From an uncultured Gammaproteobacteria bacterium (GTDB lineage: Bacteria; Patescibacteriota; Microgenomatia; CAZETR01; Amesbacteraceae): DNA of 64,000 bases. The stretch is from NCBI GenBank assembly GCA_964518565.1, contig CAZFGX010000001.1:905553-969552 (forward strand), given 5' to 3'. The notes below the pieces were generated by a model, which worked only from the letters and a program-made list of their open reading frames with translations, had not been told where the DNA came from and made no database searches. A program made the position numbers and the translations under genes. Position 1 is the first letter of the stretch. Each line of letters begins with the position of its first letter. This document shows, one piece after another, positions 20,584 to 36,235 of the stretch.

Positions 20584-20588
20584 AAAAG

Positions 20589-22358
20589 CTAATAAATATC
20601 AAAGCTGCGCAACAGCTTTTTATTCCCTTCTACCTGATATTTGAGCAGTTCAGAGTACAACCCTTTCCGTTTTGCCAGCTCGCCCGGTGTGCCCATATCT
20701 GCAATCGTCCCCTTTTCCAATACCACAATCCGATCCACGTTTTGAATCGTCGAAAAACGATGCGCAATAATAATCACCAACCGGTTTTTAAACAATTTTT
20801 CCAAAGCATCCTGTACCAATTTCTCAGATTTAGAATCCAGACTACTCGTCGCTTCATCCAAAATCAAGATCGGTTTATCATGCAAAATTGCCCGAGCAAT
20901 CTGCAATCGTTGTTTCTGTCCACCAGACAATTTTACCCCCCGCTCACCCACCTGAGCATCCAGCTTATCAGCAAACTTTTCCACAAATTCATCTGCATTT
21001 GCTTGTTTCAACGCTTTCCAAATTTGTGCATCACTCACCTCACCTACTCCATACGCCACATTTTCTCGCACAGTCGAAGAAAACAATTCATTGTCTTGAA
21101 ATACCAAGGCCATATGTTCCCGCACAAACGCATGATCCAACTGTGCATAAGATTTACTCGACAACAAAATCTTTCCACCCGTCGGTTCATACAGTTTCAA
21201 AATCAAATTGACCAAAGTTGTCTTACCCGCACCAGAATTTCCCACCAGTGCCACAGTCTCCTGTTTATCCAAGGTAAAGTTCAGATCTGTCAAAACCGGC
21301 GCCCCATCTTCATAGGCAAAGGCCACGTTATCAAATGTAATTGTCGGTTTCTTACCCACCCCAGTCACCGCTTTTGTCATAAACTTTTCTGTCTCTGGCA
21401 AATCCAATACTTCAAAAAACGCTTTCGAATCAGCTTCTGCCCGTTGCACCTGTTCCAAAATATAACTCATACCAAATAGTGGCCACCGCAACTGGTTCAA
21501 CAGTTGAATCACCAGTACCATTTCTCCCAAAGTAAATGTTCCCAAAAATGTATTGCGGAAAATCAAAAACAAAATCACCACAAACGCAATCTCCAGCCCA
21601 AACTGTCTCACAAAATTCAATATGTGATACTGTGTGGATTGACGATCATAAATCTGATTTATCTTTTCATATTGATCAGAAATATATGCCCATTCTCGCT
21701 GTTGTGTGTTATAGGTTTTTACCAGTTTAATATTGGCCACAGCTTCACCGATCCGTCCTCGGCTAGCATCCTCATGCACATTTTTCTTCTCTTGTAACAC
21801 TCCCCAACGCTTGGTCGAATAGGTCGAAATGGCAATATAGACGGGAAACACCGACAGGGCCAACAATCCAATGATCACGTTGTAATGTACCAGCACTCCA
21901 ATCCCAAAAATCGCTTGCAAAATAGCCGGCAAAATAAAATTGCTCATTGAACCCACAAATCCTTGAATAGACAAAATTCCCCGGTTCAGTTGATTGACAA
22001 TCTTCCCCGACAATTCCCCGTCAAAATATTTTTGCGGCAGCTGAAAAATCTTTTTGTAATAGACTTCGGTCAAATAGCGTCCTAGTCGCGAAGAAATATA
22101 ATCCCCAATTCGCTGATTCACTGCATCAAACACCACTCCACCGATATTGATACCCAAAATCAGCACAAACAACCAAATCAATTTCTGATAATCTCCACCC
22201 CCACCAGAAATCTGTTTGGACAGCTCATCCACCACATATTTGAGAGTTATGGGTGTCGCCTGCAACAAAACCGCTTGCAAAGTAATCAATACACATGCCA
22301 CCCCAATCCAGCGGTGGTACGGCCGCGCAAGTTTAATAATTTTCCAAATATTTTTCAT
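20589..22358 (-). CDS. ABC transporter, fused permease/ATP-binding exporter (MsbA-like)
   Basis: 589 aa. Six-TM N-terminal domain, Walker A GNSGAGKTT, ABC signature LSGGQKQRLQIARAIL, Walker B ILILDEATSSLD. Confidence 0.9.
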   Translation of the reverse strand: MKNIWKIIKLARPYHRWIGVACVLITLQAVLLQATPITLKYVVDELSKQISGGGGDYQKLIWLFVLILGINIGGVVFDAVNQRIGDYISSRLGRYLTEVYYKKIFQLPQKYFDGELSGKIVNQLNRGILSIQGFVGSMSNFILPAILQAIFGIGVLVHYNVIIGLLALSVFPVYIAISTYSTKRWGVLQEKKNVHEDASRGRIGEAVANIKLVKTYNTQQREWAYISDQYEKINQIYDRQSTQYHILNFVRQFGLEIAFVVILFLIFRNTFLGTFTLGEMVLVIQLLNQLRWPLFGMSYILEQVQRAEADSKAFFEVLDLPETEKFMTKAVTGVGKKPTITFDNVAFAYEDGAPVLTDLNFTLDKQETVALVGNSGAGKTTLVNLILKLYEPTGGKILLSSKSYAQLDHAFVREHMALVFQDNELFSSTVRENVAYGVGEVSDAQIWKALKQANADEFVEKFADKLDAQVGERGVKLSGGQKQRLQIARAILHDKPILILDEATSSLDSKSEKLVQDALEKLFKNRLVIIIAHRFSTIQNVDRIVVLEKGTIADMGTPGELAKRKGLYSELLKYQVEGNKKLLRSFDIY

Positions 22359-22385
22359 GTGGTCTGCAAATTATACCCGAAACGG

Positions 22386-22886
22386 CTATTTTATATCCAA
22401 AAGCACAAATCCTCTTTTAGTATCATATCCAAAATGATCCAAAGGCGAATCAGCCACTACACTAGACCGTTCTACTGGAATATCTACCCTATCACTTTTT
22501 AACCAATCCAATATCTCCTGACGATTTTTACTCATATTTACTTGTCGCATCTCACCTTCTTTTTGGTCTGCAGCATTCACTCTTTCTACATACTTAACCG
22601 TAGTAGCTCCCTCCCTTTTTAATTCAGCAATCTCTTCTTCCAGCATATTCACATTCCATCTAGGATTCACATGTATTGCTGCCATCACCTCTGACCCACG
22701 AGTAATCACAACTGGTACACACACCGCCACACCCGGAAATTCCAACAAATCATATTTCTCCTGACCAGGTTGCGGTTTCCACAACATCCCATCTGTCACC
22801 GTATACTCCCTCGGCTCACCATGAAAATCCACCTCTACAGTTGGCAGTCCTCGCTCAGACATAAAAAAACCGCCCATAAAATTCAA
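22386..22886 (-). CDS. hypothetical protein
   Basis: 166-aa ORF with no motif. Confidence 0.35.
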   Translation of the reverse strand: MNFMGGFFMSERGLPTVEVDFHGEPREYTVTDGMLWKPQPGQEKYDLLEFPGVAVCVPVVITRGSEVMAAIHVNPRWNVNMLEEEIAELKREGATTVKYVERVNAADQKEGEMRQVNMSKNRQEILDWLKSDRVDIPVERSSVVADSPLDHFGYDTKRGFVLLDIK

Positions 22887-23062
22887 TCAATTGCTCTGGT
22901 TCATCTGCCTGGATCTTAAAATAAGCAATGGCGTTCATGACCAATCTCAGTATAACAAAAAAATCCCCCCAGATTCCTCTGAGGGGATAATACATTTTAT
23001 TTCTTTTCCAGAAAAAACTTTAGTCGCACATGACCAAGTCATCTCTTCAAAAAAACTGACTT

Positions 23063-23398
23063 CTAACTCGCATTCTTTGCCGTAAACACATATGTTTTTT
23101 CCGGATAATCGCTGTGATCGGGCTGATGAACTTCTACATTCCAACCCTTACCTCGATACACATCAACAAACGTCTCAAACCATCCATGAGCATTAATATC
23201 TGCTAAAGGCACACCCGCACCAGTGACGCACTGATGCAACTCATGTTGGCCAAATCTGGCCACGCCCTGCTTTAACTTTAATCGCAACAATTGATTGATT
23301 GCACCAATCATAGCCGGCGAAATAGTTGCAGAACGCATTGCTTCCTCGGGACCAATTGCCCAATCTTCAGGATTACCACGATCTTTAAAATTACTCAT
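23063..23398 (-). CDS. small protein, member A of a four-paralog family in this locus
   Basis: 111 aa. SD GGAGGAATATG. C-terminal block W-x-F-x2-(V/L)Y-x3-GW-…-Y-F-x3-NA, shared with 25349..25675 and, more loosely, with 23422..23772 and 25692..26012. Confidence 0.5.
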   Translation of the reverse strand: MSNFKDRGNPEDWAIGPEEAMRSATISPAMIGAINQLLRLKLKQGVARFGQHELHQCVTGAGVPLADINAHGWFETFVDVYRGKGWNVEVHQPDHSDYPEKTYVFTAKNAS

Positions 23399-23421
23399 AT
23401 TCCTCCAAGGTCAAAAAATCA

Positions 23422-23772
23422 CTAGTAACGCTTAGCTTGAGATGTACGAACAGATTTTGGGTTTTTGTTTATAGGCGTAAACACATACACTGCGCCACCA
23501 CCAGCTCGTTGGTCTTGATATTCGATTTTCACATCCCATCCGTATTTTCCATACAATTCACTGAAATTCCACCAATTGTAATGATCTGCAGCCCCCAAGC
23601 TAAAATTCGGTTTTTCTTGAAGACATTCGACCAACGCGGATTTTGGTATTTTTGCTACACCTTCCCGAAAATAAATTCGGATCAACCCATCGATCACATC
23701 CACCATTTCCTGAGGAATTGGTTTCAATGAAGCCATTAATTCATCAGGAGTTATAGGTCTCGCCTGTTTCAT
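23422..23772 (-). CDS. small protein, member B of the four-paralog family
   Basis: Start moved to the ATG at 23772 (MKQARPI…), which follows SD GGAGGTGAATATG. Clear paralog of 25692..26012 (IPQEMVDVIDGLIR…WWNFSELYGKYGWDVKIEY versus IPDVMIDIINGLIR…WWNFDALYRFNGWDVSVK). Confidence 0.5.
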   Translation of the reverse strand: MKQARPITPDELMASLKPIPQEMVDVIDGLIRIYFREGVAKIPKSALVECLQEKPNFSLGAADHYNWWNFSELYGKYGWDVKIEYQDQRAGGGAVYVFTPINKNPKSVRTSQAKRY

Positions 23773-23804
23773 ATTCACCTCCAAAATACACAACCTAGGT
23801 AAAC

Positions 23805-24296
23805 TTACCGCCCAGTCGTCGGAATCGCAGTTGCAACCCGATGTATCACAGTCGGTCGAGGGGTACCCTCAATTTCAGTAATCGACCTCACACTCAACAA
23901 TTTACTTCCATGTGACCCGGGAATTCCTTGGCCACAAGTAGTGCTTATCTGTGAACCGCTAGAATCTCTCGTCACATATTCAATATCGGTATTTAACCAA
24001 TCTCGATATTCGTAAACAATTGTTGCATTTTCTTCCTGAACAATGCTTTTCAGTTTGTTTGCCAAATCTTCATCCAACGTACAAAACACATATGTATTGT
24101 CACCAAAAATCCACAGTTGCGTGAGTCCATTATTCAACGGTTCAACATTACTAATAACTCCCCGCCCGACTCCTGGCTTTTTTGCAATTCCATCACTCGT
24201 ATTCCCCTTTGGCGTCGAAAGACACGCCATACTCAAAAACAAAATGAGCATCAACCCAAAAAAATACTGTACCGTTCTATTTTTACCCATATTCAC
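23805..24296 (-). CDS. lipoprotein, unknown function
   Basis: 163 aa. Signal peptide with lipobox LSMAC. The start MNMG and the 5' UTR are identical to those of 25692..26012. Confidence 0.5.
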   Translation of the reverse strand: MNMGKNRTVQYFFGLMLILFLSMACLSTPKGNTSDGIAKKPGVGRGVISNVEPLNNGLTQLWIFGDNTYVFCTLDEDLANKLKSIVQEENATIVYEYRDWLNTDIEYVTRDSSGSQISTTCGQGIPGSHGSKLLSVRSITEIEGTPRPTVIHRVATAIPTTGR

Positions 24297-24431
24297 CTCT
24301 CAAATTTCAATGTACTGCGCCATGAAATTGCGCCTGCACATTGTACCTAAAAATAGCCCACAAATCAAAACTATAGGCCTTAATACCACAAAAAAGGGCC
24401 GCGAGCATTTCTGCCCCCGGCCATGTGTTAC

Positions 24432-25334
24432 TTAAGAAAAATTGCCCGGATTCGCCCAAGACTCAAAATCCACCCACGCCGCAAACAGTGGCATAGGGAT
24501 TCCTTGTCGGCTAATCCAAAACAAAAACGGTTGATCGATCACCATAGGGCGATCCAGCGATACTGACTCAAATGAAACAGAGATTCCTGCCGCACTTTCA
24601 GCTTTCGCTGCCTTGTGATTCATCTTCAACTTGCTCTGTTGCTTGGCCTCCACTACTCGAGCAATCTGGTCTATTTTAAATGTTTCGGTCCAGATCCCCT
24701 TCAACCAATCCAGCGAAGTATCCACGTTCAAATCCACCATCGGAAAATGCAATGCGGAAAATTCACCTGTTCGCTTCATGTCCCGCTGAGTTGCCCGAGC
24801 AAAAAGCGACAACTCAAATGGGGAAATTTCCGCGCCCAACTTACATGGCATCATATATGCCACATCGCGCGTATCTTTGGTCGCTACACTAGCAATCGAC
24901 AGGTGATCCAAGGAATAAAAGCTCAGCCCCCGTCGCTTCATGTACACCCCGTCATAGTCCTTTCCATTCTCTCCACGCAATTTCTGCTCAGAACCAGCTT
25001 GTTGCCATGTCAACAAGTGGGAGTAAATACATCCCAAATAAAACATCTCCTGATCCGGCTGAGGTTTGGCCGTCAGCTTAATGGAAAACCCATTATCTGC
25101 AAACCATTTGTTAATGATTTTGACATCCCAAGTCGACTTGCCTTTCATCAGCTTATCAGCTGTCAGTCCAGGGATATGTTGACGCACCTCCTTCATATAA
25201 TCCAAAAACACCAACTGCTCAAAAGGCATAGATTCTTTTGCCTGCCAAATGCTCCCAACTGGCAAAATGCCATCCACTTCGGCCTGTACCAACGCTCCAA
25301 CAATATCAAAAATCGAACTCACACGACTAGTCAT
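24432..25334 (-). CDS. serpin-like protein (short serine-protease-inhibitor homolog)
   Basis: 300 aa. The C-terminus carries a hinge-like NHKAAKAESAAGIS and the serpin signature …DRPMVIDQPFLFWI…PMPLF. Shorter than the usual ~380-420 aa serpin. Confidence 0.4.
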   Translation of the reverse strand: MTSRVSSIFDIVGALVQAEVDGILPVGSIWQAKESMPFEQLVFLDYMKEVRQHIPGLTADKLMKGKSTWDVKIINKWFADNGFSIKLTAKPQPDQEMFYLGCIYSHLLTWQQAGSEQKLRGENGKDYDGVYMKRRGLSFYSLDHLSIASVATKDTRDVAYMMPCKLGAEISPFELSLFARATQRDMKRTGEFSALHFPMVDLNVDTSLDWLKGIWTETFKIDQIARVVEAKQQSKLKMNHKAAKAESAAGISVSFESVSLDRPMVIDQPFLFWISRQGIPMPLFAAWVDFESWANPGNFS

Positions 25335-25348
25335 AATTATTTTCTCCT

Positions 25349-25675
25349 TTACTCAGCATTCTGTTTTACAAACGTGTAATATGGTGCAAAAACTTCTTGC
25401 CCTGGAACAGGTGTGTGATACGTACACATCCACCCTTTAGTGCAATACAACGGCTCAAAATTCAGCCACTGCTGATGAGCGTCCAACTCATCCTGACTCA
25501 GACCTTTATGAAAAATTTCCTCCATCAGCGTAGCCAAAGTAATGACCAACACTGGACCCTTAGTCAAAAACTCTGCCATCACCAAACGAAAATCCACTGC
25601 ATTCAACACTTCATCCGGAATTCTTTCTAAACTCTCATTCACCACAGTCGGATTTGTAGCCGAAAACGTCGCCAT
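25349..25675 (-). CDS. small protein, member C of the four-paralog family
   Basis: 108 aa. SD GGAGGTGAACAATG. C-terminal W-x-F-x-LY…GW…Y-F-x-NAE block like 23063..23398. Confidence 0.5.
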   Translation of the reverse strand: MATFSATNPTVVNESLERIPDEVLNAVDFRLVMAEFLTKGPVLVITLATLMEEIFHKGLSQDELDAHQQWLNFEPLYCTKGWMCTYHTPVPGQEVFAPYYTFVKQNAE

Positions 25676-25691
25676 TGTTCACCTCCAAAAG

Positions 25692-26012
25692 CTATCGTGG
25701 TCGTTTTCTTTCTGGTTTGGTTTTCCTCTCGGGTATAAATGTGTATCGTCCATCCTTCACACTCACATCCCAACCATTGAATCGATACAATGCGTCAAAA
25801 TTCCACCAGCCATAGCGATCTGCATCTTCAGATTGAATATCGTCAGCCAACAACTCCATCAATTCACCCTTGTTAAATGTAGCCTTACCGTCCCGAAACT
25901 CACGCCGAATCAATCCATTAATGATATCTATCATTACATCTGGAATCGGCAACACCTTCTCTTTCAAATCAGTCGGCCGTATTGGCCTCACCTTCTTCGT
26001 TCCCATATTCAC
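25692..26012 (-). CDS. small protein, member D of the four-paralog family
   Basis: 106 aa. Paralog of 23422..23772. Its 5' region is identical to that of lipoprotein 23805..24296. Confidence 0.5.
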   Translation of the reverse strand: MNMGTKKVRPIRPTDLKEKVLPIPDVMIDIINGLIRREFRDGKATFNKGELMELLADDIQSEDADRYGWWNFDALYRFNGWDVSVKDGRYTFIPERKTKPERKRPR

Positions 26013-26114
26013 CTCTTAAATTTCAATGTACTGCGCCCAATTGCGCGGTCAGCGGATTATACCTGAAACTATAGGTCTATTCAAAATTTACACATCTAAT
26101 GTTAGGATACACAC

Positions 26115-26555
26115 ATGGCCGCCGTTAGTACCTATATCAATTGCGCTCGTCAGACTCGTGAAGCCTTTGAATTCTATCGCTCCGTCTTCAAAACCGAATT
26201 TGTTGGTCAAACCATGACTTTTGGCCAAGTCCCCCAAGACCCTGCCCATCCTCTCGCCGATTCAGATAAAGATCTCATCATGCATATCGCCCTCCCCACA
26301 ATTGGTGGCCATGTTCTCCATGGTACCGATGCGCCAGAATCTATGGGCTTTCATCTCAAACCCGGAGACAACATCCATATCATGTTAGAACCCGATACTC
26401 GCGAAGAAGCAGATCGTCTATATACTGCTCTCTCCGCAGGTTCAAATGTCACCATGCCCATGCAAGACCAGTTTTGGGGTGACTACTTTGGCTCACTCAC
26501 TGATAAATTTGGCATCAACTGGATGATAAACCACCACACTACCCCAAATAACTAA
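26115..26555 (+). CDS. PhnB-like VOC family protein
   Basis: 146 aa. PhnB/3-demethylubiquinone methyltransferase-like fold signature (YINCARQTREAFEFYRSVF…FWGDYFGSLTDKFGINWMI). Confidence 0.55.
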   Translation: MAAVSTYINCARQTREAFEFYRSVFKTEFVGQTMTFGQVPQDPAHPLADSDKDLIMHIALPTIGGHVLHGTDAPESMGFHLKPGDNIHIMLEPDTREEADRLYTALSAGSNVTMPMQDQFWGDYFGSLTDKFGINWMINHHTTPNN

Positions 26556-26570
26556 ATCCAAACAATATCC

Positions 26571-26930
26571 ATGCGCAAAGAAACCCTTTTTATTCTGGCT
26601 TGCATCGGCGTAATCAGTCTGATTACCATTCTCTACAAATTCTCCACCCGCCCTTCCATGCCACCCACTCCACACCAAGGCTCCATTACTGGTGCCATCG
26701 AATGCCTCCCCCACAAAAACACTTCTGGTCCCCAAACTCTTGAATGTGCTTTTGGTCTGCGTGGTGACGACGACCAACACTATCTCCTTGTGTACAAACC
26801 TGCGACTCAAGACCATATTCCAGTCGGCCAACGCGTCAAAGTCTTTGGCGATATTACTGCCCAAACCCATCCAGTGTACGACATCATCGCCAAAATCTCT
26901 GTTTCAAACATCAAATCTCTAGGCAAATAA
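26571..26930 (+). CDS. membrane-anchored hypothetical protein
   Basis: 119 aa with an N-terminal TM. A hairpin follows at 26935..26960. Confidence 0.4.
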   Translation: MRKETLFILACIGVISLITILYKFSTRPSMPPTPHQGSITGAIECLPHKNTSGPQTLECAFGLRGDDDQHYLLVYKPATQDHIPVGQRVKVFGDITAQTHPVYDIIAKISVSNIKSLGK

Positions 26931-26970
26931 AAAAAGGCGGTTCGCTTTCGCTCCCCGCCTAAGAAAAAAA
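26929..26970. terminator. bidirectional hairpin terminator between convergent genes
   Basis: A-run, then AGGCGG (26935-40), a 14-nt loop, CCGCCT (26955-60), then an A/T run. Contains the repeated core TCGCTTTCGCTCCCC. Confidence 0.45.
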
Positions 26971-26990
26971 TCGGCTGTTAAATTATTTTT

Positions 26991-27461
26991 TTAACTCACT
27001 GGTAAAAACAAATTCGTCTTGGATGCATTACGGATACTTCCCACAGCAGGAGCATCTACCTCTCTATCTCGATGAGACAAGACCTGAATCCGAACTACAT
27101 CACTACCCACAGACAGTACTGATACTGGCACATTCACCACCCGACCAATACCATAATGCATCCATCGAGCTCGAAAACCCTTTGCAAACAGCTGCTCATC
27201 CACAGTAAAAAACAACGAGCTCAAAGCTACTGTTTGCATAGAATGCATCGGGGGCACATCGTGTCCAATCCAAGAATGAGGCAATACCCTGATCGACGCC
27301 ATACCCACCTCGCGCATGACATTAGACACACGCACCGGCACACACACCAAACGTCGATAACCCAAAAAAATCCATCTCGCTTCATCATCAATAGACAATT
27401 GAACCGTCCCATCAGCCAATATCTGTTGATTTCGACGTAAAATCGCCACAAATCTGTGCAT
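26991..27461 (-). CDS. hypothetical protein (first of a tandem triplet of ~155-aa proteins)
   Basis: Start moved to the ATG at 27461 (MHRFVAILRR…), which follows AGGAGGCGTTATGCA. This is the identical context used by 27470..27955. Confidence 0.4.
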   Translation of the reverse strand: MHRFVAILRRNQQILADGTVQLSIDDEARWIFLGYRRLVCVPVRVSNVMREVGMASIRVLPHSWIGHDVPPMHSMQTVALSSLFFTVDEQLFAKGFRARWMHYGIGRVVNVPVSVLSVGSDVVRIQVLSHRDREVDAPAVGSIRNASKTNLFLPVS

Positions 27462-27469
27462 AACGCCTC

Positions 27470-27955
27470 CTACAACACCGGCAATCTCAATTGAAACTTT
27501 GGCACACACACAGTTGCACCAATTTGGGGATTAAAAAGCCACATCGGCTTTATCAACCCAACTACAGAAATAATCACAGTATCGTCAGCATTGACTCGAA
27601 TGACCCTTGCCCAAGCTTGCGCCTCACCAGGCCAAGCAGGTTTATGCCAATACACGCCTTGATTCGCTTGCAAAGATTGGTCCACAGACCGCACCATAGC
27701 TCCCATTTTGTCGGTACACGTAAACAGAAATCTTCCAGCTACTACAATATTTTGATTCAAGAATTCATTTACTGGGGGCTCGGTCAAAAAATACAACACT
27801 TGCACGTGTAGTTCACCTCGGTCATTACATGGAACAACGACGACGCCAATACCCATATAAACCACTTCTTCTGTTGGCGGCTTTGTAAAATAAAACCCAA
27901 CGCGATCCCCAATTTCCAATTTCCGATACTCATCGTAACTCATCATCGTATGCAT
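27470..27955 (-). CDS. hypothetical protein (second of triplet)
   Basis: 161 aa. SD/start context AGGAGGCGTTATGCA. 8-bp gap to the neighbours on each side. Confidence 0.45.
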   Translation of the reverse strand: MHTMMSYDEYRKLEIGDRVGFYFTKPPTEEVVYMGIGVVVVPCNDRGELHVQVLYFLTEPPVNEFLNQNIVVAGRFLFTCTDKMGAMVRSVDQSLQANQGVYWHKPAWPGEAQAWARVIRVNADDTVIISVVGLIKPMWLFNPQIGATVCVPKFQLRLPVL

Positions 27956-27963
27956 AACGCCTC

Positions 27964-28421
27964 CTAATCAGCAATCAAAATAATCGACAACGGATCCACC
28001 GGAAATTCCTGCCCCACACCATAATAAAAGTGTCCACGTAATACGCGTTCGACCTTCAATGTTGCCGGTCGAAAACGCCGCTTGCCATGAGTGCAGTGCA
28101 CCATGCCTCGTTCTCCTTTTTCGTTCAGAAAATGGATAACTGGAGCCCCATTTGGCAATTTGTCCACTTCTTGTGGTTCCAGCATAATCCAGCGCAAATC
28201 CGTAAAAGAAGCCGAAATAGTTTGGCCAAACTCAAACGAATCAAGGCCTGGCACAGCGACACCTTCATAGCGTAGCAAGGCACACTGGTGATCACGATCC
28301 AATGACAAAATTCGCACTTTTCCAATCTTGCCGTCTTGCCACCCCTGCCGCTCTAACGCCAAGACCATGTTCGGCTTCAAAATGTCATATTCACTCGGAT
28401 AAACTTTCAGCGTAAACATAT
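27964..28421 (-). CDS. hypothetical protein (third of triplet)
   Basis: Start moved to the ATG at 28421 (MFTLKVYPSEYD…), which follows SD AAGGAGAG. 152 aa. Confidence 0.4.
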
Positions 28422-28540
28422 ATTCTCTCCTTAACAGCCAATTTTCAAAGTTCGAAAAGGCCAAAAAAGCGCATTGCTTCGCGGCCTTCACCACATGATA
28501 TTTTATCTCCCCCAGACCAGAAAATCAAACACTACAGGAT

Positions 28541-28575
28541 AAAAAAAGGGGCAGGTCGCTTTCGCTCCCCACCCC
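28541..28575. repeat. second copy of the A7-GG…TCGCTTTCGCTCCCC hairpin element
   Basis: aaaaaaaggggcaggTCGCTTTCGCTCCCCacccc shares a 15-nt core with 26942..26956. Read on the minus strand it gives a GC hairpin plus T-run, consistent with a terminator for 28604..28879. Confidence 0.4.
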
Positions 28576-28603
28576 AAACAAACCAAACTGCTTTTTGCTA
28601 CCA

Positions 28604-28879
28604 TTACAAATGGTAAAAATCACCAAACATAGCTACAAATTTGTCTCCAATCTTCACTTGTTCTTTTTTAGGAATAAATAGCCCTCTCTTGAGAAATTTT
28701 TCGACTTGTACCACCCGAGTATTCACCGCTTGTTCAGCCACAACCTTAACTTTCACCACTTGAAGAGTGCGACCTGCTCCAAAAATTACACATGCGAGAC
28801 TTCCCACTGTCAAAGCTTGCGCCTCTGGCCCAGTCATGGGCTTATACCCCTCTTTTTCACTCTTTGGTTGATTTGCCAC
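28604..28879 (-). CDS. hypothetical small protein
   Basis: 91 aa. Contains the TLQVVKVKVVAEQ motif, resembling KQVFRVKVVQ in the upstream gene. Confidence 0.4.
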   Translation of the reverse strand: MANQPKSEKEGYKPMTGPEAQALTVGSLACVIFGAGRTLQVVKVKVVAEQAVNTRVVQVEKFLKRGLFIPKKEQVKIGDKFVAMFGDFYHL

Positions 28880-28881
28880 AA

Positions 28882-29159
28882 TTACTCCTTCTCAAAGAAG
28901 ATTCCATCTGCATCAGACCAAACGATACAATTCAAATCGTAATCTGAATCATGCACCGCTGCTGAACCGATATGAATAATTTCCAAAATCTGGAAACTCC
29001 CCAGTGATTTAGGTGGCTGCACCACCTTCACACGAAACACTTGCTTCGTCGCTGGATCGTCACCGATAATCAAAATTACTGTTTGGCCAGCGTTCAAGGC
29101 TGCAAATTGTGCATCTGTGACGTTCGCGTACCGAGATCTGTCAAATGTAGCTAACATAG
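28882..29159 (-). CDS. hypothetical small protein
   Basis: Start moved to the ATG at 29159 (MLATFDRSRY…), which follows SD GGAGGG. 92 aa. First gene downstream of the 29255..29292 promoter. Confidence 0.4.
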
Positions 29160-29254
29160 CCCTCCAACAAAAAAAGCAATCTATTAATGTACGAACGAAA
29201 TACCTCGTCTTCTTGCAATCCAAAAATAGAAATACTTCGTTTTACAGCAAGTGA

Positions 29255-29292
29255 ATTAGTTCACTTGATATATCAATATTATAGCCAAAAAT
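29255..29292 (-). promoter_or_regulatory. sigma70-type promoter (TTGACT-N17-TATAAT) with downstream operator-like palindrome
   Basis: The minus strand reads TTGACTttacgcctatttttggcTATAAT. A perfect inverted repeat CAAGTGAA-N4-TTCACTTG (29244..29263) lies at about +7 to +26. Confidence 0.45.
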
Positions 29293-29319
29293 AGGCGTAA
29301 AGTCAAACTATAGGCCTAA

Positions 29320-29676
29320 TTAGGCTCGATCTACATTAGAATGTCGCGATTCATACACAAATCGCACCACATCTTCTACCACCTTCACAGATAACGGCTT
29401 TGAAAATGGCAATTGGAGTGTAGCTCGACCAGAAATTTTTGCCCCACCTAGATCCGGCATAGCCTTTGCCAGACCATCTGGTATTGGATAAATGGACAAA
29501 TATGTTTTCCACGCCCCAAAGTATACAATCGGCTTCCCATGTATCTTGTACCCAATAATGCCATAACTAATCGCCTCCTCTGCTTCAGGTATCATCTTCA
29601 AAATCACCTTACGTACCAAAACCAACCGTTCCTGTACATCTTTTGGGAAACTATCGATATACGCGTTTACTGTCAT
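29320..29676 (-). CDS. DUF1801 (YdhG-like) domain protein
   Basis: 118 aa. YdhG-like core (IIGYKIHGKPIVYFGAWKTYLSIYP). Confidence 0.55.
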   Translation of the reverse strand: MTVNAYIDSFPKDVQERLVLVRKVILKMIPEAEEAISYGIIGYKIHGKPIVYFGAWKTYLSIYPIPDGLAKAMPDLGGAKISGRATLQLPFSKPLSVKVVEDVVRFVYESRHSNVDRA

Positions 29677-29993
29677 AACAGATTTCCCAACTTCTTTTGT
29701 TTACTCAAAATCCCCTTGATCGACGGGCTCAATTCTTTATCTGTCCGATGAATACACCCAATCCAACAACATGGCCGCCGTTTTCCCTCCTTCAGTTGCC
29801 TCACTGTCCTTTTGACATGATCCTCGCGTGTTTTCTCCGTCTTTGGAAACAATACCCAACAAATCCACTCGTTCCTCGCCAGCGGCGTCAACCCTTCCCA
29901 TAATGCCAAAGATTTTGCGTCATCCCCCAAAGCCTTACCCAAATCCTCAGGCATAGTGTGTACTACTCCAGCTGATATTTGTGTCTGATTCAT
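29673..29993 (-). CDS. YdeI/OmpD-associated family protein
   Basis: 106 aa. Motif NEWICWVLFPKTEKTREDHVKRTV, typical of PF13376. Confidence 0.55.
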   Translation of the reverse strand: MNQTQISAGVVHTMPEDLGKALGDDAKSLALWEGLTPLARNEWICWVLFPKTEKTREDHVKRTVRQLKEGKRRPCCWIGCIHRTDKELSPSIKGILSKQKKLGNLL

Positions 29994-30002
29994 ATACCAA
30001 TT

Positions 30003-30425
30003 TTAGCGCACTTGGCCAGCCCCACCCACTTTTTCAGCTTTTTTCAAAATCTCCTTCAACACCTGCATATCAATATCTGCCAACTTCTTAAACCGAATAC
30101 AACTCTTACCAATACTCGCTTTTGGCAATTTGTCCTTATACTGCTCTGCAATATAAATACCATCTTCTATGGCACAAACATATACCGATATATAATTTTT
30201 CTGACTCGCCAAAGCCACCAGTGACCAATCTCCTTCTTTTCCCGAAGCATACCGATAATGATACGTCCCGTACCCAATCATTCCCGACAAAATATGTGGT
30301 TTCAAATCCGGAACCGTCTTTTGAATAAACGCATGCAACACTTCTACTTCTTTTCTCCTCGGCTCCTCAATTGCCAAAATATACTCCTCCGGCGTCTTGG
30401 CTAGTGTCGGTTTAAACATATTCAT
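30003..30425 (-). CDS. DUF1801 domain protein
   Basis: Start moved to the internal ATG at 30425 (MNMFKPTLAK…). YdhG-like pattern. Confidence 0.5.
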   Translation of the reverse strand: MNMFKPTLAKTPEEYILAIEEPRRKEVEVLHAFIQKTVPDLKPHILSGMIGYGTYHYRYASGKEGDWSLVALASQKNYISVYVCAIEDGIYIAEQYKDKLPKASIGKSCIRFKKLADIDMQVLKEILKKAEKVGGAGQVR

Positions 30426-30443
30426 ACCCCATAAGTATAAAAT

Positions 30444-31025
30444 ATGACTATGAATATCTCCAAAAATAATTATTACCAAGAAAAGCTATCCCAAATCATC
30501 GCCTCAAAGCAAACATATACAGAAATTGAATTTGAAGATTGTGAATTCTTCGAATGTCATTGGATAGATTGCACGTTTGAAAAATGCAAATTTATCAATT
30601 GCCGATTTCATGACTGCCTTATTAGTGCCACCCGACTGACCAATTCGCGCTTTAGAGAAACCATATTCAAAAACTGTAAAGTCATTGGTATTGATTGGAC
30701 TACGACACAAAGTCTTCAGTATCTTTCGTTTGAAAATTGCCAAATAAATTATTCAAACTTTCATGCTCTCTATTTATCTGAATTAAAAATTCTATCCTGC
30801 GAAGCAGTAGAGGTAGACTTCTCTGAAACAAATCTCACCCAAGCAATACTCACAAATACTGATTTCAATCAAAGTATTTTCTCAAAAACCAATCTGCATA
30901 AAGCCGATCTCCAAGGCGCCAAAAACTATTACATTGACCCTCGGCAAAACACCATCAAAGATGCCACTTTTTCACTCCCCGAAGCTCTTTCTCTCCTAGA
31001 AACGTTAGACATAATACTAAAATAA
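30444..31025 (+). CDS. pentapeptide repeat protein
   Basis: 193 aa with tandem A(D/N)LxX-type pentapeptides (CEFFECHWIDCTFEKCKFINCRFHDC…). Confidence 0.8.
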   Translation: MTMNISKNNYYQEKLSQIIASKQTYTEIEFEDCEFFECHWIDCTFEKCKFINCRFHDCLISATRLTNSRFRETIFKNCKVIGIDWTTTQSLQYLSFENCQINYSNFHALYLSELKILSCEAVEVDFSETNLTQAILTNTDFNQSIFSKTNLHKADLQGAKNYYIDPRQNTIKDATFSLPEALSLLETLDIILK

Positions 31026-31487
31026 TTATCGAAACACTCGCTGCTCCTTCAAAATTTTCAAAATCTTTCCTCGCGTACCCACCACTCTTCCAATCATCAC
31101 TCCGGCTGAAATCGCCATACTCATGCCTCCTACCATGGAAGCATAAAAGAAATAGCCAATAATTTGTCTTCGAACAATCACAAATGCTATATAAAGTACC
31201 AGTATCACAATTCCAAACGCATCCAATCGCGATACAATTTTTTTAGCATCATGGTCCCAAGATAAATGAAACATTCGCGCCACTCCAACTCCCAAAAAAA
31301 TTCCCATCACAACACCAAGCAATGCAAACCCCACAGTCACCATACCAAACAAAATTTCATACCCCACTACACCTAGCAACAAAAAGGACAGCACAAAATA
31401 CCACCGCATGCGGTTTTTCAGTTTCTTATCCAAATGCTTTTCCAGCATACGATGACGAATTCGTCTTCCCATGTCATAAATATACAA
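31026..31487 (-). CDS. hypothetical membrane protein
   Basis: 153 aa with three or four TM segments. Confidence 0.4.
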   Translation of the reverse strand: MYIYDMGRRIRHRMLEKHLDKKLKNRMRWYFVLSFLLLGVVGYEILFGMVTVGFALLGVVMGIFLGVGVARMFHLSWDHDAKKIVSRLDAFGIVILVLYIAFVIVRRQIIGYFFYASMVGGMSMAISAGVMIGRVVGTRGKILKILKEQRVFR

Positions 31488-31592
31488 GAATAAAAAAAGT
31501 GCTGTCTATTCCTAAACAGCGCTATGAAAAACTATTCCAAACTTGTCAATTTAATGTTTTGCGGACCCAAGTCAGAACCCAACTTACGATTG

Positions 31593-32264
31593 CTAACGAG
31601 TCAAAAGTAACAACCGTTTCACACCATTTTCAACTATACGTATATCTTTCTCATCATACGAATGATGCTTCATGTAAACTAAAACTTTCGTTTTCATTTC
31701 TTCAGTCCAACCTCGAAAATTAAAGGTGTCAACATACACTTCCTGACCGCCACTTCCTTTCATATAATTTCTTTCGTTGTTGTCAAAATAAAAAGGAATC
31801 TCAAGTTGGCGTAATACATCAATTACCCTTGCCATAGATCTGTCTTCGCCATCTTTTAATCCTCTATCAACCTTATTAAGCATCTTCTGGACGCCTGCTT
31901 TTGAAAAGGTCTCACCATATACTCGCTCTCGAAAATTCAAAGACAAACCCTTTCCATTCAATCTACCATATGCTGCATATATCCGAGGAAAATTATCAGG
32001 AAATAAAGTGCAAAGAATTTGATGGTTATAGTACACCGCCTTGGCTTCTTCAGGTGAAGATTCCTTATAACTCACTGCAACCAACTTATCTGGATCATTT
32101 TCCAATGCCGCTACAGCCATTCTTCCTCCCTCACCTACAAAATTCCAATCTGTTTTTAATAGTTGTGCTACATCATTACTCGACACATTTCCGCGCTCAA
32201 ACAAGTCTTGTAAAACAATTCGAGAATCAACAGATAAAGATTCTGATGAAAAAAGTTCGGGCAT
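31593..32264 (-). CDS. hypothetical protein, third gene of the DUF2975-XRE operon
   Basis: Start moved to the ATG at 32264 (MPELFSSES…), directly after the XRE gene stop. 223 aa, no motif. Confidence 0.4.
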   Translation of the reverse strand: MPELFSSESLSVDSRIVLQDLFERGNVSSNDVAQLLKTDWNFVGEGGRMAVAALENDPDKLVAVSYKESSPEEAKAVYYNHQILCTLFPDNFPRIYAAYGRLNGKGLSLNFRERVYGETFSKAGVQKMLNKVDRGLKDGEDRSMARVIDVLRQLEIPFYFDNNERNYMKGSGGQEVYVDTFNFRGWTEEMKTKVLVYMKHHSYDEKDIRIVENGVKRLLLLTR

Positions 32265-32268
32265 ACAT

Positions 32269-32472
32269 TTATTTCTTGTATTCCAAAATATCTCCCGGCT
32301 GACAGTCCAATGCTTTACAAATAGCTTCCAATGTTGAAAAACGAATTGCGCGCGCCTTATCATTTTTCAAAATCGACAAATTTGCCATCGTAATCCCCAC
32401 CTTGTCTGCTAGTTCCGTCACACTCATTTTTCGCCTTGCCAGCATCACGTCTAGATTAATCACAATTCCCAT
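32269..32472 (-). CDS. XRE-family helix-turn-helix transcriptional regulator (YozG-like)
   Basis: 67 aa with an HTH (MSVTELADKVGITMANLSILKN). Confidence 0.8.
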   Translation of the reverse strand: MGIVINLDVMLARRKMSVTELADKVGITMANLSILKNDKARAIRFSTLEAICKALDCQPGDILEYKK

Positions 32473-32476
32473 ATAT

Positions 32477-32953
32477 TTAAATCGTTAATTCATTTTCTGA
32501 TTTTAAATCCACTGCATTTTTGAATAGCTTTTCAAATACAGCCGCCGCAGTCGCAATCACGGCAATTGCAAACGACACCATAAACCCCAACATAATCGGC
32601 CCAGTAGGATCATCACCATTTGCAAAAAACCTTAAATATAACTGTGCCGCAACAATAAAACCAATTTGCAAAATAGAAACCAATTTAATATTCCGTAGTC
32701 TCTTCACTGCTTCCTTGGAAAACGCTCTATTCGCATCAATCAACTGCAACAATTTAAAAGCTTGAAACAGTCCTACAAAAAACGGTATTGATCCAATGTA
32801 TATATAGATAATTAGCGGATCAGCATAAATCTGCAACAGACTCAACCCTTGTGCCCGTCCTTCAGTCTGTGGAAATCTAATCATCATAGCCACTACTCCC
32901 ACGGCCACCATCAACAGCACCAATTTCAAAAAACCTGTTGTTCCTCGTTTCAT
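32477..32953 (-). CDS. DUF2975-family membrane protein
   Basis: 158 aa with four TM segments. Immediately upstream of a short XRE regulator, which is the usual DUF2975/YozG pairing. Confidence 0.65.
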   Translation of the reverse strand: MKRGTTGFLKLVLLMVAVGVVAMMIRFPQTEGRAQGLSLLQIYADPLIIYIYIGSIPFFVGLFQAFKLLQLIDANRAFSKEAVKRLRNIKLVSILQIGFIVAAQLYLRFFANGDDPTGPIMLGFMVSFAIAVIATAAAVFEKLFKNAVDLKSENELTI

Positions 32954-33055
32954 ATCATAATAATAATTGATTATTTATCGTTTGTCAATAAATTATTATT
33001 GATATACATAACATTACCTCTAAAATAGCTTATCAAATAAGCTATACTTCCATAT

Positions 33056-33958
33056 ATGCTTACCGAAGAAAAAATTCGTCAAACTGAAAACGTAGAAGTT
33101 CCCCCACCCTCCGCAGAACTATTCAACAAACTTACAAGAATCGAGTCTCTACCAGAAACAGAATCTTCAAAACAACTTAAAGACATTCTCAAACAAAAAT
33201 CCCAAGACATGCTAAAAGCGTGGCAAGACAGAGGTTTTATATCTACCCAAGAAGCAAACTCTGTCAGCACTGCTTGGGAGAATACCATTATATTAGACAG
33301 CCAAGGAATGGAAATGTTTGGCCAATATCAATCTTCTATTTTTGAAAAAGCCAAAATAGAATTAGACGCCAGAAATTCAGAACCAGAGATGGCCACCTTA
33401 GCCGAAAAAGCCAAAGCAATAATTGAATCTACAAAACTTACCTGCAAACAAGCTGGTGCTCTCACCTTTAGACCCAGCTCTATGCAAGCCGAAGAATCCA
33501 ACATCGACACACCTCTTCCCTCATTTATTCTTATAAACACAGATAAAACCACCACAGAAAATCCAGGAAAAATAAACGCTACTGCATTTGAAGAAACTGC
33601 CCACCTCATCAGCAAGTTAAGCCAATATCCAGAAGCCAACACCAAATGGCTAGAAGAAACCATGGCTCGAGTTGTAGCATTTGAAACTCCCTCTGCTCAT
33701 GGCGACCAAAACGAAAAAGATTCAAAGACAGCTGCAGATATACTCAGATATCATGACTACAAATTATTGTTTCATATAGTAAATAAACAAATTGGCGATA
33801 ACGGCGAAACCCTACTTCGGATGTTTTTTGGTCGAGAACCACTCAATAGTCCACTTGTTTCAAAAGCCGAAAAAGCCATCAAATCAGTAGACATGATCGC
33901 TCAAATAGTTGACGCTGGCATACCCCTCGACAACCTCCTCGAACAAAAGGATAAGTAA
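33056..33958 (+). CDS. hypothetical protein
   Basis: 300 aa, acidic/helical, no motif. Confidence 0.4.
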   Translation: MLTEEKIRQTENVEVPPPSAELFNKLTRIESLPETESSKQLKDILKQKSQDMLKAWQDRGFISTQEANSVSTAWENTIILDSQGMEMFGQYQSSIFEKAKIELDARNSEPEMATLAEKAKAIIESTKLTCKQAGALTFRPSSMQAEESNIDTPLPSFILINTDKTTTENPGKINATAFEETAHLISKLSQYPEANTKWLEETMARVVAFETPSAHGDQNEKDSKTAADILRYHDYKLLFHIVNKQIGDNGETLLRMFFGREPLNSPLVSKAEKAIKSVDMIAQIVDAGIPLDNLLEQKDK

Positions 33959-34239
33959 ACCTTATTTCCTGCTACAATTAATTTACGAAATGGTTGATTG
34001 CTTTGTATTATTGGCGATGGCAACAGTGGCCAAGGTTTCAATACTGCATCTGGCGGCATTGGACCTGGCCAATCCTACAACATCCAATCGTATATCAATA
34101 TAAATAAACCCAACGGCACATATTCAGGAGCCAATGTTGTGAAATATGGCGACAACTGTTCCACCACCAATGGCACAGTCATCGACACAGTCTCTTACAC
34201 TATTACCCTTACTGATTAATATTGTGTATAATAATTAGT

Positions 34240-34476
34240 ATGAAAACCATGACTTGCAAACAATTAGCCGGAGCCTGTGACTTGGAATTTCATGCCGAAA
34301 CTTTTGATGACATAGCCAAGCTTAGCCAACAACACGGCATGGAAATGTTTCAAAAAGGAGATGCTCCCCATCTGGAGGCTCAACAAAAAATGATGCAGCT
34401 TATGTCAGATCCTACTGCAATGCAAAAATGGATGGATGAAAAACGCGCCGAATTTGACGCCCTGCCCACTGCTTAA
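34240..34476 (+). CDS. DUF1059 family small protein
   Basis: Start at MKTMTCKQLAGACDLEFHAETFDDIAKL… Paralog of 13951..14184. Confidence 0.7.
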   Translation: MKTMTCKQLAGACDLEFHAETFDDIAKLSQQHGMEMFQKGDAPHLEAQQKMMQLMSDPTAMQKWMDEKRAEFDALPTA

Positions 34477-34781
34477 ACTTTTATCTCCAAAGTAAAACTT
34501 ATCTGTTTATTCACCTCCACCTTCTCCTTCTTTCTCACCTCTGCTTTAAGCGGTAAAAGATATGCATTCAGCTTTTTATCCGGAAAAATTGATGTCTCCC
34601 AAACAGTTTTCCCCAGAGTTACTTTTACCGCCAGTGACCCCCAACCTCTCTTAAAATCTCCAAATTGTTGCTTAATTTCTTTTGACATCTCCTCAGGTAT
34701 CGTCACAAAATACCAACCCGCCATGCTCGGATACACCCAAACGTCTGCCTGCAATTTATATCTTTTATTATCACTACTCAT
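34473..34781 (-). CDS. DUF1905 domain protein
   Basis: 102 aa. WVYPSMAGWYFVTIPEE…IFPDKKLNAYLLPLKAEVRK matches the DUF1905 pattern. Confidence 0.6.
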   Translation of the reverse strand: MSSDNKRYKLQADVWVYPSMAGWYFVTIPEEMSKEIKQQFGDFKRGWGSLAVKVTLGKTVWETSIFPDKKLNAYLLPLKAEVRKKEKVEVNKQISFTLEIKV

Positions 34782-35136
34782 TCTTATTTTTACTATTCAA
34801 TTTCACCGCTTCCTGAATCAATTTCACAAAAGCCTCCTCATCAATCTTGTCATTCTCGTGAATCAAAATTGCTCTGTGGGCGTTAATAATCCCTTTCGGG
34901 TCATAGTCTTTCAGTTCTACTCCTTTAGACAAGGTTAGTCTCAAATGTTGTTTATAAATCTCTCCTGTCGAAATAATTCCATTTTTACTCCATACCAAAT
35001 TTCCATCTGGATTAGACGGTTTTCTCCACTTCACCTCCTCCACAATTTCCGAATTGGCTTCGGCCATCAACTGCCGAATTTTTGTCATCACCTCTCCCCG
35101 CCAATCATTAGGTAATGGATAATCAATTTTTATCAT
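34774..35136 (-). CDS. DUF1801 (YdhG-like) domain protein
   Basis: 120 aa. Motif KWRKPSNPDGNLVWSKNGIISTGEIYKQHLRLTL. Confidence 0.45.
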   Translation of the reverse strand: MIKIDYPLPNDWRGEVMTKIRQLMAEANSEIVEEVKWRKPSNPDGNLVWSKNGIISTGEIYKQHLRLTLSKGVELKDYDPKGIINAHRAILIHENDKIDEEAFVKLIQEAVKLNSKNKNE

Positions 35137-35353
35137 AACGATTCCTTGGTTGTGAATTTGTTTTTAAAGACTCCAATAAAATCTTAGCATCTTTGCTAAT
35201 TGCCAAAACTGCCTCCTCAAAAACTTTTTTATTCACTTGTGACGGCTGTCTAAACCCCGACAACTTTCTCACAAATTGCAATGCAGCAGCAGATATTTCG
35301 TCTGCTGTTGCTGGCGGATCAAAATTGTAAAGTGTTTTTATACTTCTACACAT
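35123..35353 (-). CDS. DUF2277 domain protein
   Basis: 76 aa. MCRSIKTLYNFDPPATADEISAAALQFVRKLSGF matches the DUF2277 N-terminal consensus. Confidence 0.7.
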   Translation of the reverse strand: MCRSIKTLYNFDPPATADEISAAALQFVRKLSGFRQPSQVNKKVFEEAVLAISKDAKILLESLKTNSQPRNRYDKN

Positions 35354-35376
35354 AGTTATCAGTCATTATAAAACGT

Positions 35377-35637
35377 TTACTCCACATCAAATTTATCATT
35401 CGCCACACTCGGAGCCTTTATGACCAATAGTTCTGTATTAGGCTGAGCACTAATATTTCGCAATGCTGCTTCGGGATACACTACCAAAAAATCCCGCTGT
35501 TTTAGTTCTACTGTTTCTCCATTTATCTCCACCACGTACCCACCAGAAACAACTACATTCACCTCGACTCCTACTTTATGAAAATGTGCTTGATTTTCTT
35601 CAAAATGCGTCGGCAATTTTTTCCAAGCCACTTCCAT
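35377..35637 (-). CDS. cupin domain protein
   Basis: 86-aa small beta-barrel with His residues (HFHKVGVEVNVVVSGG). Confidence 0.5.
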   Translation of the reverse strand: MEVAWKKLPTHFEENQAHFHKVGVEVNVVVSGGYVVEINGETVELKQRDFLVVYPEAALRNISAQPNTELLVIKAPSVANDKFDVE

Positions 35638-35737
35638 CTCTTCAGTTGCTAAATCGGGAAAGCCCTTATCTCCTTAAAACCTACCCACAAAATATCCCTT
35701 CGTCGATTCAAAGTCGTCCACGGTTCCTTTTACAAAT

Positions 35738-36235
35738 TTATTCACCCGCATTTCGGATTGCTTCAAGATCAAGTTTTTTCATCGGCATAAACACTTTTGT
35801 AACAGCTTCCGCTTTTTTAGGATCACGCATATATTCATCCAAAATCCTTGGGGTTACTTGCCATGTGACACCAAATTTATCTGTACACCAACCACATTGT
35901 TCGGCTTCAGGTACAGCAGACAGTTTCTCCCAGAAAAAATCTATCTCTTCTTGAGTTTCACATTCGATAATATAAGAAGTTGCGCCATTAAGTTTGAATT
36001 GCTCCACAGGACCACCATTAAGAAACATAAAACTAATTCCATCAATATCACATTCCGCTGTCATGACAGACCCCTCTGGCCTGCCAGACACTTCTTCGCT
36101 GGCCTTTGGCGCTTTGGTAACATCTCCCATTTTAGCCTCGTGATTCCCTGGAGCCGAATTAAAAGTATCCATATAATACTTTACCGCCTCTTCACCATTG
36201 TTATTGGCAAACCAGATACATGTAATTAGTTTACT
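35738..36235 (-). CDS. PhnB-like VOC family protein
   Basis: Start moved to MSKLITCIWFANNNGEEAVKYY… (typical PhnB start). Motif GWCTDKFGVTWQV. Confidence 0.6.
   Translation of the reverse strand, partial: SKLITCIWFANNNGEEAVKYYMDTFNSAPGNHEAKMGDVTKAPKASEEVSGRPEGSVMTAECDIDGISFMFLNGGPVEQFKLNGATSYIIECETQEEIDFFWEKLSAVPEAEQCGWCTDKFGVTWQVTPRILDEYMRDPKKAEAVTKVFMPMKKLDLEAIRNAGE

Follow-up and report, generated by a model that had tools for sequence, protein, structure and literature searches.

Two probable adjacent transcription units of lineage-restricted genes for small soluble proteins, one of them modelled as a tandem SH3/Tudor-like barrel, in an uncultured bacterium

What do five adjacent small genes of no recognised family encode, and are they expressed as one tightly regulated operon? 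The question is raised by a locus, here called G1 to G5, that lies with all its regulatory features on the minus strand of a 64,000-nucleotide (nt) stretch of contig CAZFGX010000001.1 (assembly GCA_964518565.1), the whole of which is referred to below as the window. A first-pass annotation had described it as a single five-gene, multi-copy operon behind a consensus promoter with what looked like a repressor site, and as a candidate defence or stress module. We propose a different reading, with a confidence that stops somewhat short of an even chance, in which the locus comprises two adjacent units of lineage-restricted genes for small, soluble, non-enzymatic beta-barrel proteins that would form a binding or adaptor complex.

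The five genes are real protein-coding genes. Under a codon-usage model trained on ten housekeeping genes of the window, G1 to G5 score log-likelihoods of 0.17-0.32 per codon in the annotated frame, with the other five frames all negative, and held-out real genes score 0.22-0.33. Reading of the protein sequences revealed no signal peptide or membrane segment in any of the five, and no profile library detected a recognisable enzyme or catalytic domain in them. As had been stated, the proteins match no recognised family: searches of Pfam, NCBIfam, PADLOC and PHROGs with G1 to G5 gave only sub-threshold noise, namely G1 against DUF7397 and phrog_2766 (both E 0.018 over 20 residues), DUF1419 on G5, and SH3_15 (the Mind bomb SH3 repeat domain, PF18346) on G4 only, at 13.4 bits (E 0.096) where the gathering threshold is 24 bits. 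Sequence searches of the PDB returned nothing below E 0.1.

The families to which these proteins belong appear to be extremely narrow and restricted to one lineage. All five are singletons at 90% identity, and the only sequences in which they are seen are a single NCBI contig (1,001,365 bp) and a Logan assembly identical to the window (100%). In 5.8 billion protein clusters (1.84 billion representatives), the only relatives of G4 are P0002, with 59% identity, and P0007, with 36% identity (E 4.5e-24 in a full HMMER scan of the representatives), neither of which matches SH3_15; G3 and G5 have no full-length relative among the 5.8 billion clusters and match only themselves. JGI metagenomes gave no match with the G4 family or G1, the 2.9 million viral contigs of IMG/VR none for any of the five proteins, and a tblastn search with the five proteins concatenated, run up to E 0.1, none among 50,697 phage and 72,556 plasmid records. 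A lone match of the G4 alignment among GTDB species representatives (L004, a metagenome-assembled genome of Chthonomonadales) was rejected as spurious, because the frame in which it falls is non-coding and overlaps a pilC-like gene, the genome is rich in GC, and the match is driven by the word IGDRVGFY.

The relative that carries P0002 and P0007 comes from wastewater metagenomes (PRJEB14051), where the two genes are found on ENA contigs (L002/L003 and L005/L006) that overlap by exactly 240 nt. When joined, these contigs give the order G3' (C-terminal 54 amino acids, aa), P0002, P0007, G5' (N-terminal 58 aa), so that the relative possesses an extra tandem paralog of G4. The last 54 aa of G3 are 58% identical to the product of the gene upstream of the G4 homolog, with a proportion of nonsynonymous differences (pN) of 0.29 against a proportion of synonymous differences (pS) of 0.66, and the N-terminal 58 aa of G5 are 50% identical to the product of the gene downstream of P0007. 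Since pN over G3, G4 and G5 (0.26-0.33) is far below pS, which is saturated at 0.66-0.76, the three genes are judged to be under purifying selection, and their order is conserved. As a separate observation, L002 (1..21) and L005 (1..19) begin with Illumina adapter sequence (AGACGTGTGCTCTTCCGATCT), an assembly artefact.

The structure prediction and Foldseek comparison that had been recommended for all five proteins were run for G4 only, and for this protein they point to a tandem SH3/Tudor-like barrel. The AlphaFold2 model built from a three-sequence alignment, with a mean predicted local distance difference test score (pLDDT) of 77.7 and a predicted template-modelling score (pTM) of 0.53, contains two five-stranded barrels with a short 3-10 turn before the last strand in each, that is, the bent antiparallel five-stranded barrel and 3-10 turn that characterise the SH3-like/Tudor-like small beta-barrel superfold. 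Its top Foldseek matches are tandem Agenet, tandem Tudor and the KIN17 tandem SH3-like domain, with E values from 3.3e-4. A first model, made from two sequences (pLDDT 56), was taken as a lead only. The sequence families of the cluster are new, while the fold modelled for G4 is well known.

The resemblance does not amount to membership in any of the systems in which this fold has been described. G4, P0002 and P0007 have no Pfam Tudor, Agenet, PWWP or MBT match, even at E up to 1, and G4 accordingly has no profile membership in the eukaryotic Tudor/Agenet/SAWADEE/MBT Royal family (7yta, 53BP1 2g3r, SETDB1) or in KIN17 (9coj). The root-mean-square deviation from the tandem Tudor, Agenet and KIN17 structures over both domains is 9-14 A, and because it is so high the interdomain packing is either not shared or, at this pTM, not fixed by the model. 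Unlike in the Royal family readers, an aromatic cage is not evident in G4, where W103 is, as judged from sequence, the only aromatic of the C-terminal barrel that all three family members keep (P0007 lacks W108 and W115), and a histone-reading role is not expected of a bacterial protein. KapB, the kinase-associated protein B of Bacillus (PDB 1y71), has an N-terminal SH3-like barrel to which G4 is 8% identical, with no match to the Pfam KapB profile; KapB is a lipoprotein with a single barrel followed by a helical hairpin, whereas G4 is a tandem barrel without signal peptide or lipobox. Similarly, PSHCP (6nnb), the R67/DfrB dihydrofolate reductase (1vie) and the KOW domains of NusG/Spt5 show no sequence relation to G4; these are single-domain proteins that are broadly conserved or plasmid-borne, in contrast to the chromosomal and nearly unique G1-G5 cluster.

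Within the cluster, all-against-all BLAST detected no similarity among the five proteins. With hhalign, G1 and G2, which carry RVKVV and KVKVV, respectively, align with 33% identity over 64 columns, and none of 120 column shuffles reaches the observed score, which supports their being paralogs. G5 may be a diverged copy of G4, as suggested by a collinear hhalign alignment of the G4 family with G5 over 133 columns that includes a C-terminal K-x-x-L-x-LPV (P about 0.06-0.07). The description of the locus as a multi-copy cassette is therefore upheld for G1 and G2, and it is also consistent with the tandem G4 copy of the relative.

The view of the five genes as one operon, on the other hand, was not borne out. 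Because a strong intrinsic terminator, T1, stands 3' of G2 and the 184-nt gap between G2 and G3 contains, besides T1, only a weak promoter candidate, the genes probably form two units (G1-G2 and G3-G4-G5), or one attenuated unit. A second terminator, T2, follows G5. Both consist of a G+C-rich hairpin and a U-run, as intrinsic (Rho-independent) terminators do, and they share this run, the apical part of the hairpin and an exact 14-mer, GGGAGCGAAAGCGA, that occurs nowhere else in the window. Within the units the genes are tightly linked and translationally coupled. The ribosome site of G2, GAGAAGGAG, lies within the 3' end of G1, and the G3/G4 and G4/G5 gaps, of 8 nt each, read identically as TAGGAGGCGTTATGCA, so that the TAG stop opens the ribosome-binding site of the next gene (TAGGAGG-N4-ATG). 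The same design, TAGGAGG followed by 4 or 5 nt and ATG, is found at every junction of the relative. Coordinates are collected in Table 1.

Table 1. Genes and predicted regulatory features of the G1-G5 locus, in the direction of transcription (window coordinates).
Feature	Coordinates	Strand	Description
12-nt perfect palindrome GCCTAATTAGGC	29314..29325	(-)	Overlaps TAA stop of the upstream DUF1801 gene (29320..29676)
AGGCCTATAGTTTGA	29303..29317	(-)	Copy of the recurrent promoter motif RRCCTATAGT; overlaps -35 box
Sigma70-type promoter (predicted)	29278..29306	(-)	TTGACT (29306..29301), 17-nt spacer, TATAAT (29283..29278); 11/12 match
Second perfect 12-nt palindrome TTGATATATCAA	29265..29276	(-)	Between -10 box and inverted repeat, abutting the repeat; absent from the first-pass annotation
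5' leader (predicted)	29158..29272	(-)	~115 nt; three predicted hairpins, the third pairing the GGAGGG ribosome site with a U-run
Perfect inverted repeat CAAGTGAA-CTAA-TTCACTTG	29248..29267	(-)	8-4-8; about +5..+24 of the predicted transcript
G1	28882..29157	(-)	91 aa, acidic (pI 4.7), soluble; GGAGGG ribosome site 5' of the open reading frame
G2	28604..28879	(-)	91 aa, basic (pI 9.7); GTG start 2 nt past the G1 stop
Intrinsic terminator T1 (predicted)	28541..28575	(-)	GGGGUGGGGAGCGAAAGCGACCUGCCCC then U7; hairpin -20.5 kcal/mol; 29 nt past G2
Weak candidate promoter for G3-G5	28500..28528	(-)	TTGATT-N17-TAAAAT; 9/12 match
G3	27964..28419	(-)	151 aa; AAGGAG 5' of ATG start
G4	27470..27955	(-)	161 aa; two modelled SH3/Tudor-like beta-barrels, residues 18-79 and 100-158
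G5	26991..27461	(-)	156 aa, strongly basic (pI 10.7); candidate divergent paralog of G4
Intrinsic terminator T2 (predicted)	26926..26960	(-)	AGGCGGGGAGCGAAAGCGAACCGCC then U7; hairpin -14.2 kcal/mol; 3' of G5

These findings can be arranged in a model. In the first unit, a housekeeping-type sigma70 promoter would drive transcription of the structured leader, of the acidic G1 and of the basic G2, up to T1; the two paralogs are translationally coupled and may associate in a charge-complementary heterodimer. The second unit would be reached by read-through of T1 or from the weak promoter downstream of it, and its three products would be made in a fixed ratio, since each stop sits inside the ribosome-binding site of the next gene, and may join in a hetero-oligomeric complex with a binding or adaptor role. 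As ligand, either a protein or a nucleic acid would come into question, with the basic character of G2 and G5 favouring the latter. The cluster as a whole would evolve by tandem duplication followed by rapid divergence, and the inverted repeat behind the promoter would act as a 5'-terminal mRNA stem-loop on transcript stability or translation.

Several points weigh against this model. Among the five proteins, the SH3/Tudor-like fold has been established, by modelling, for G4 only, and such barrels occur in proteins of very different function, so that the fold alone gives no function. The relation between G4 and G5 is not significant, given that 8 of 120 shuffles reach the observed score, and hhalign with the same controls found no signal between G3 and either G4 or G5, so that the multi-copy description is at best suggestive for G4 and G5 and does not extend to G3. 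Only the arrangement of the genes suggests that a complex is formed, the candidate promoter of the second unit is weak, and a perfect 8-4-8 palindrome overlapping +1 also occupies the classic position of a repressor operator.

If the complex is real, it would be a case, from bacteria, of a multi-subunit assembly that consists of Tudor/SH3-like barrels alone, and of orphan genes that arise through tandem duplication and fast divergence in a reduced genome. A bolder version, which we regard as improbable, is that G1 to G5 make up an undescribed system built entirely of SH3/Tudor-like barrels, in which G3, G4 and G5 would form a stoichiometric hetero-oligomer, each subunit a tandem barrel, with G1 and G2 as a charge-complementary single-domain pair. 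Expressed under the control of a dedicated operator or leader at its promoter, the complex would recognise one particular macromolecule of the cell or of foreign origin, such as a modified nucleic acid or peptide. Were this true, the module would be a non-enzymatic reader or adaptor of a new kind, confined to a wastewater lineage with small genomes. Among uncultivated bacteria with small genomes, such orphan operons are common and, without a phenotype, would not greatly surprise a specialist. More modestly, five hypothetical proteins turn into real and selected ones that are non-enzymatic, belong to no known defence system and include one, G4, that is SH3/Tudor-like; and the regulatory reading is corrected to two probable transcription units in which the palindrome may work at the RNA level instead of as a site on DNA.

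How the first unit is controlled depends on the region 5' of G1. The TTGACT-N17-TATAAT promoter reported there is present on the minus strand, although at 29306..29278 and not at 29255..29292. It shows the near-consensus hexamers and 17-nt spacing of sigma70 promoters, and its activity is predicted from these letters. The window contains 4 matches of at least 11/12 where about 2 would be expected, so statistics alone are insufficient; the call is credible because the promoter is intergenic (in the 162-nt gap 5' of G1), correctly oriented, and belongs to a genome with a primary RpoD gene (regions 1.1 to 4, at 41580..42671). Of the other matches of this strength, one, TTGACA-N17-TGTAAT at 28785..28813 (-), inside the G2 coding sequence and 5' of T1, is probably due to chance. 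Another, TTGACA-N17-TATTAT at 32960..32988 (-), ends 6 nt before the ATG (32953) of a DUF2975 gene that is followed by a 67-aa HTH_26 gene, which suggests a leaderless mRNA for the DUF2975 gene.

The G1 promoter does not appear to be special, since it is about 75% identical over about 50 nt to a promoter at 24381..24340, 5 kb away, and belongs to a local family of similar promoters. Its copy of the RRCCTATAGT motif is one of 6 in the window, against 1.64 expected, a count reached in 1 of 100 shuffles; five of the six stand upstream of minus-strand genes. In the form RRCCTATAGT(T/A)T the motif recurs at five minus-strand promoter regions (29317, 26078, 24380, 16994 and 13905), just before the -35 or the -10 box, and could represent either a promoter element peculiar to this genome or a binding site for a factor. 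Additionally, a 36-nt stretch is duplicated with 97% identity at 24286..24321 and 26002..26037, covering the 5' untranslated region, the ribosome-binding site and the first codons (MNMG...) of the otherwise unrelated genes 23805..24296 and 25692..26012, which suggests that promoter, leader and start modules are copied between cassettes.

Of the symmetrical sequences around the promoter, the 12-nt palindrome noted earlier on its upstream side is indeed there, as GCCTAATTAGGC, but it carries no weight because perfect 12-nt palindromes occur in the window at chance frequency (20, against 14.7 +/- 3.9 expected). The perfect inverted repeat CAAGTGAA-N4-TTCACTTG, likewise described before, was found just 3' of the -10 box; it begins 10 nt past the box and overlaps the predicted start site. 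Its sequence is unique in the window, and its half-site has no second copy there. In all, the window contains 16 perfect inverted repeats whose arms measure at least 8 nt and whose loops measure at most 8 nt, against 7.3 +/- 2.5 expected, and by a post hoc estimate about 0.005 would be expected in a given 40-nt stretch, so that a position directly after the -10 box is unlikely to be due to chance, with the reserve that applies to any estimate made afterwards.

The repeat could act as RNA or as DNA. As RNA, with its flanks, it would form a hairpin of -9.2 kcal/mol, the first in the predicted fold of the leader, whose minimum free energy of -35.1 kcal/mol (z = -3.7) is matched by none of 200 shuffles. 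The leader would in this respect resemble transcripts such as those of E. coli ompA and B. subtilis aprE, which are stabilised by 5'-terminal stem-loops: a perfect 8-bp stem with a 4-nt loop opens a long structured leader, a few nt from the predicted 5' end, with the difference that here the stem-loop is known from the predicted start site and fold alone. Rfam at permissive thresholds over the locus gave no family match for the leader. In the predicted fold GGAGGG pairs with CUUUUU, and the ribosome site stays mostly paired from 15 to 50 C. An RNA thermometer of the fourU type was considered for the leader and gains no support from the predicted melting, in which the unpaired probability of the site is 0.09 at 15 C and no more than 0.19 at 42 C, without any sharp transition.

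As DNA, and independently of the function of the proteins, the repeat would be a true operator, bound by a repressor whose gene lies elsewhere or, in autoregulation, by G2, a basic product of the same unit; we consider this unlikely, yet it is the alternative that fares best. The 8-4-8 symmetry over the predicted start site is perfect, as expected of a repressor operator, the palindrome TTGATATATCAA abuts it, and the chance expectation given above speaks in its favour. Operators that overlap +1 are known from Aca-controlled anti-CRISPR promoters and from LacI/TetR-type roadblocks, with which the locus has in common that small orphan genes stand behind a strong promoter and a perfect palindrome 3' of it. 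It differs from them in that no helix-turn-helix (HTH) or other regulator gene lies in or beside the unit, in its lack of a mobile-element context, and in that the site is not repeated in the window; nor is the repeat, or GCCTAATTAGGC, present in the sibling promoters, the one at 24381..24340 included. G1 and G2 match no HTH or other DNA-binding family, and the nearest HTH gene (32269..32472) is part of the separate DUF2975-HTH pair. Given that the same sequence would also form a stable hairpin at the 5' end of a significantly structured leader, a 5' mRNA hairpin appears slightly more likely than a repressor operator.

The remaining alternatives concern the proteins, and they have to be weighed in their genomic context. 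The window is chromosomal, with genes for enolase, iPGM, a DEAD helicase, RpoD, DnaG and DUF4012, and the locus matches the rest of the chromosome in guanine-plus-cytosine (GC) content, GC skew and codon usage. Its surroundings, from about 17 to 38 kb, are made up of small accessory genes, among them those for DUF1801, glyoxalase/PhnB, DUF1905, DinB, cupin and pentapeptide proteins, and the locus itself belongs to a run of about 13 orphan genes (22.3-29.2 kb). No mobile-element genes are adjacent to it, and ten neighbour proteins have no PADLOC match (E up to 0.01) and no meaningful match in PHROGs.

The presence of small orphan proteins, of tandem paralogs whose copy number changes between relatives and of so long a run of orphan genes would fit an array of fast-evolving immunity, antitoxin-like or anti-defence binding proteins directed against foreign toxins or host systems, in which G1 and G2, with their opposite charges, would be a toxin-antitoxin-like pair. 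This explanation, to which we assign a low probability, would lead one to look for a toxin gene, a polymorphic-toxin domain, a secretion system or mobile-element genes, and none was found nearby. In this regard, G1 and G2 match no toxin-antitoxin family in Pfam, NCBIfam or PADLOC and resemble a type II pair only in size, adjacency and opposite charge, and they are atypical for such a pair because they are paralogs of each other. Moreover, the selection that acts on the second unit is ordinary purifying rather than diversifying selection, as far as saturation permits.

That the five genes form a novel, tightly repressed module for anti-phage defence or stress, with a repressor bound at the inverted repeat and released on a signal, is very unlikely. 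A strong promoter with a perfect palindromic site of 20 bp behind it, at a typical roadblock position, fast-evolving proteins without known family, and a neighbourhood rich in the small accessory stress or detoxification families DUF1801, glyoxalase/PhnB and DinB are in line with such a module. PADLOC, however, has no match for G1 to G5 (E up to 1) any more than for the neighbours, and PHROGs none for the five; no nuclease, ATPase, nucleotidyltransferase, TIR, protease or other effector or sensor domain and no membrane segment accompanies them; the site has neither an adjacent regulator gene nor a second half-site; a strong terminator splits the cluster; the promoter is one of a local family whose other members do not have the repeat; and codon usage and GC skew are native, with no mobile-element genes nearby. 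Least probable of all is that the genes are leftover cargo of a degraded phage or mobile element without current host function, for which the orphan proteins, the weak G1 matches to DUF7397 and phrog_2766, and a serine recombinase with a tRNA cluster about 30 kb away could be cited, and against which stand the lack of matches in viral contigs, phages and plasmids, a GC content, a codon usage and an extreme GC skew that fit the surrounding chromosome, and purifying selection together with a gene order kept in a relative that is about 59% identical.

Other features of the window deserve a record. Three small orphan paralogs on the minus strand (23422..23793, 25349..25675 and 25692..26012), in the same orphan-gene run as G1 to G5, share a WWNF..LY..GW motif, the closest pair being 42% identical (E 4e-23). 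Just beyond T2, a 125-aa minus-strand open reading frame (ORF) at 26493..26870, which the Logan record annotates as a gene, overlaps a plus-strand ORF of 119 aa at 26571..26930 with an N-terminal membrane anchor, and the codon-usage test is ambiguous. A group I catalytic intron (Rfam RF00028, 71 bits, E 4.6e-16) lies at 37890..38082 (-), where ARAGORN calls no tRNA, with a 162-aa ORF (37323..37811) just downstream.

On a larger scale, the GC skew is extreme (-0.2 to -0.4) over 1..58000, where most long ORFs are on the minus strand, and is about 0 after 58 kb. The large serine recombinase (58803..60227) stands where the skew collapses, beside a tRNA-Ser/tRNA-Arg cluster at 55983..57925, an arrangement that looks like an integrated element. 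In that cluster, ARAGORN calls a tRNA-Ser with the unusual anticodon ACT at 57840..57925 (+), which is either a wrong call or an atypical tRNA. A block at 48000..52000 with low GC content (0.32-0.34, against about 0.43 elsewhere) and weaker skew may have been acquired horizontally.

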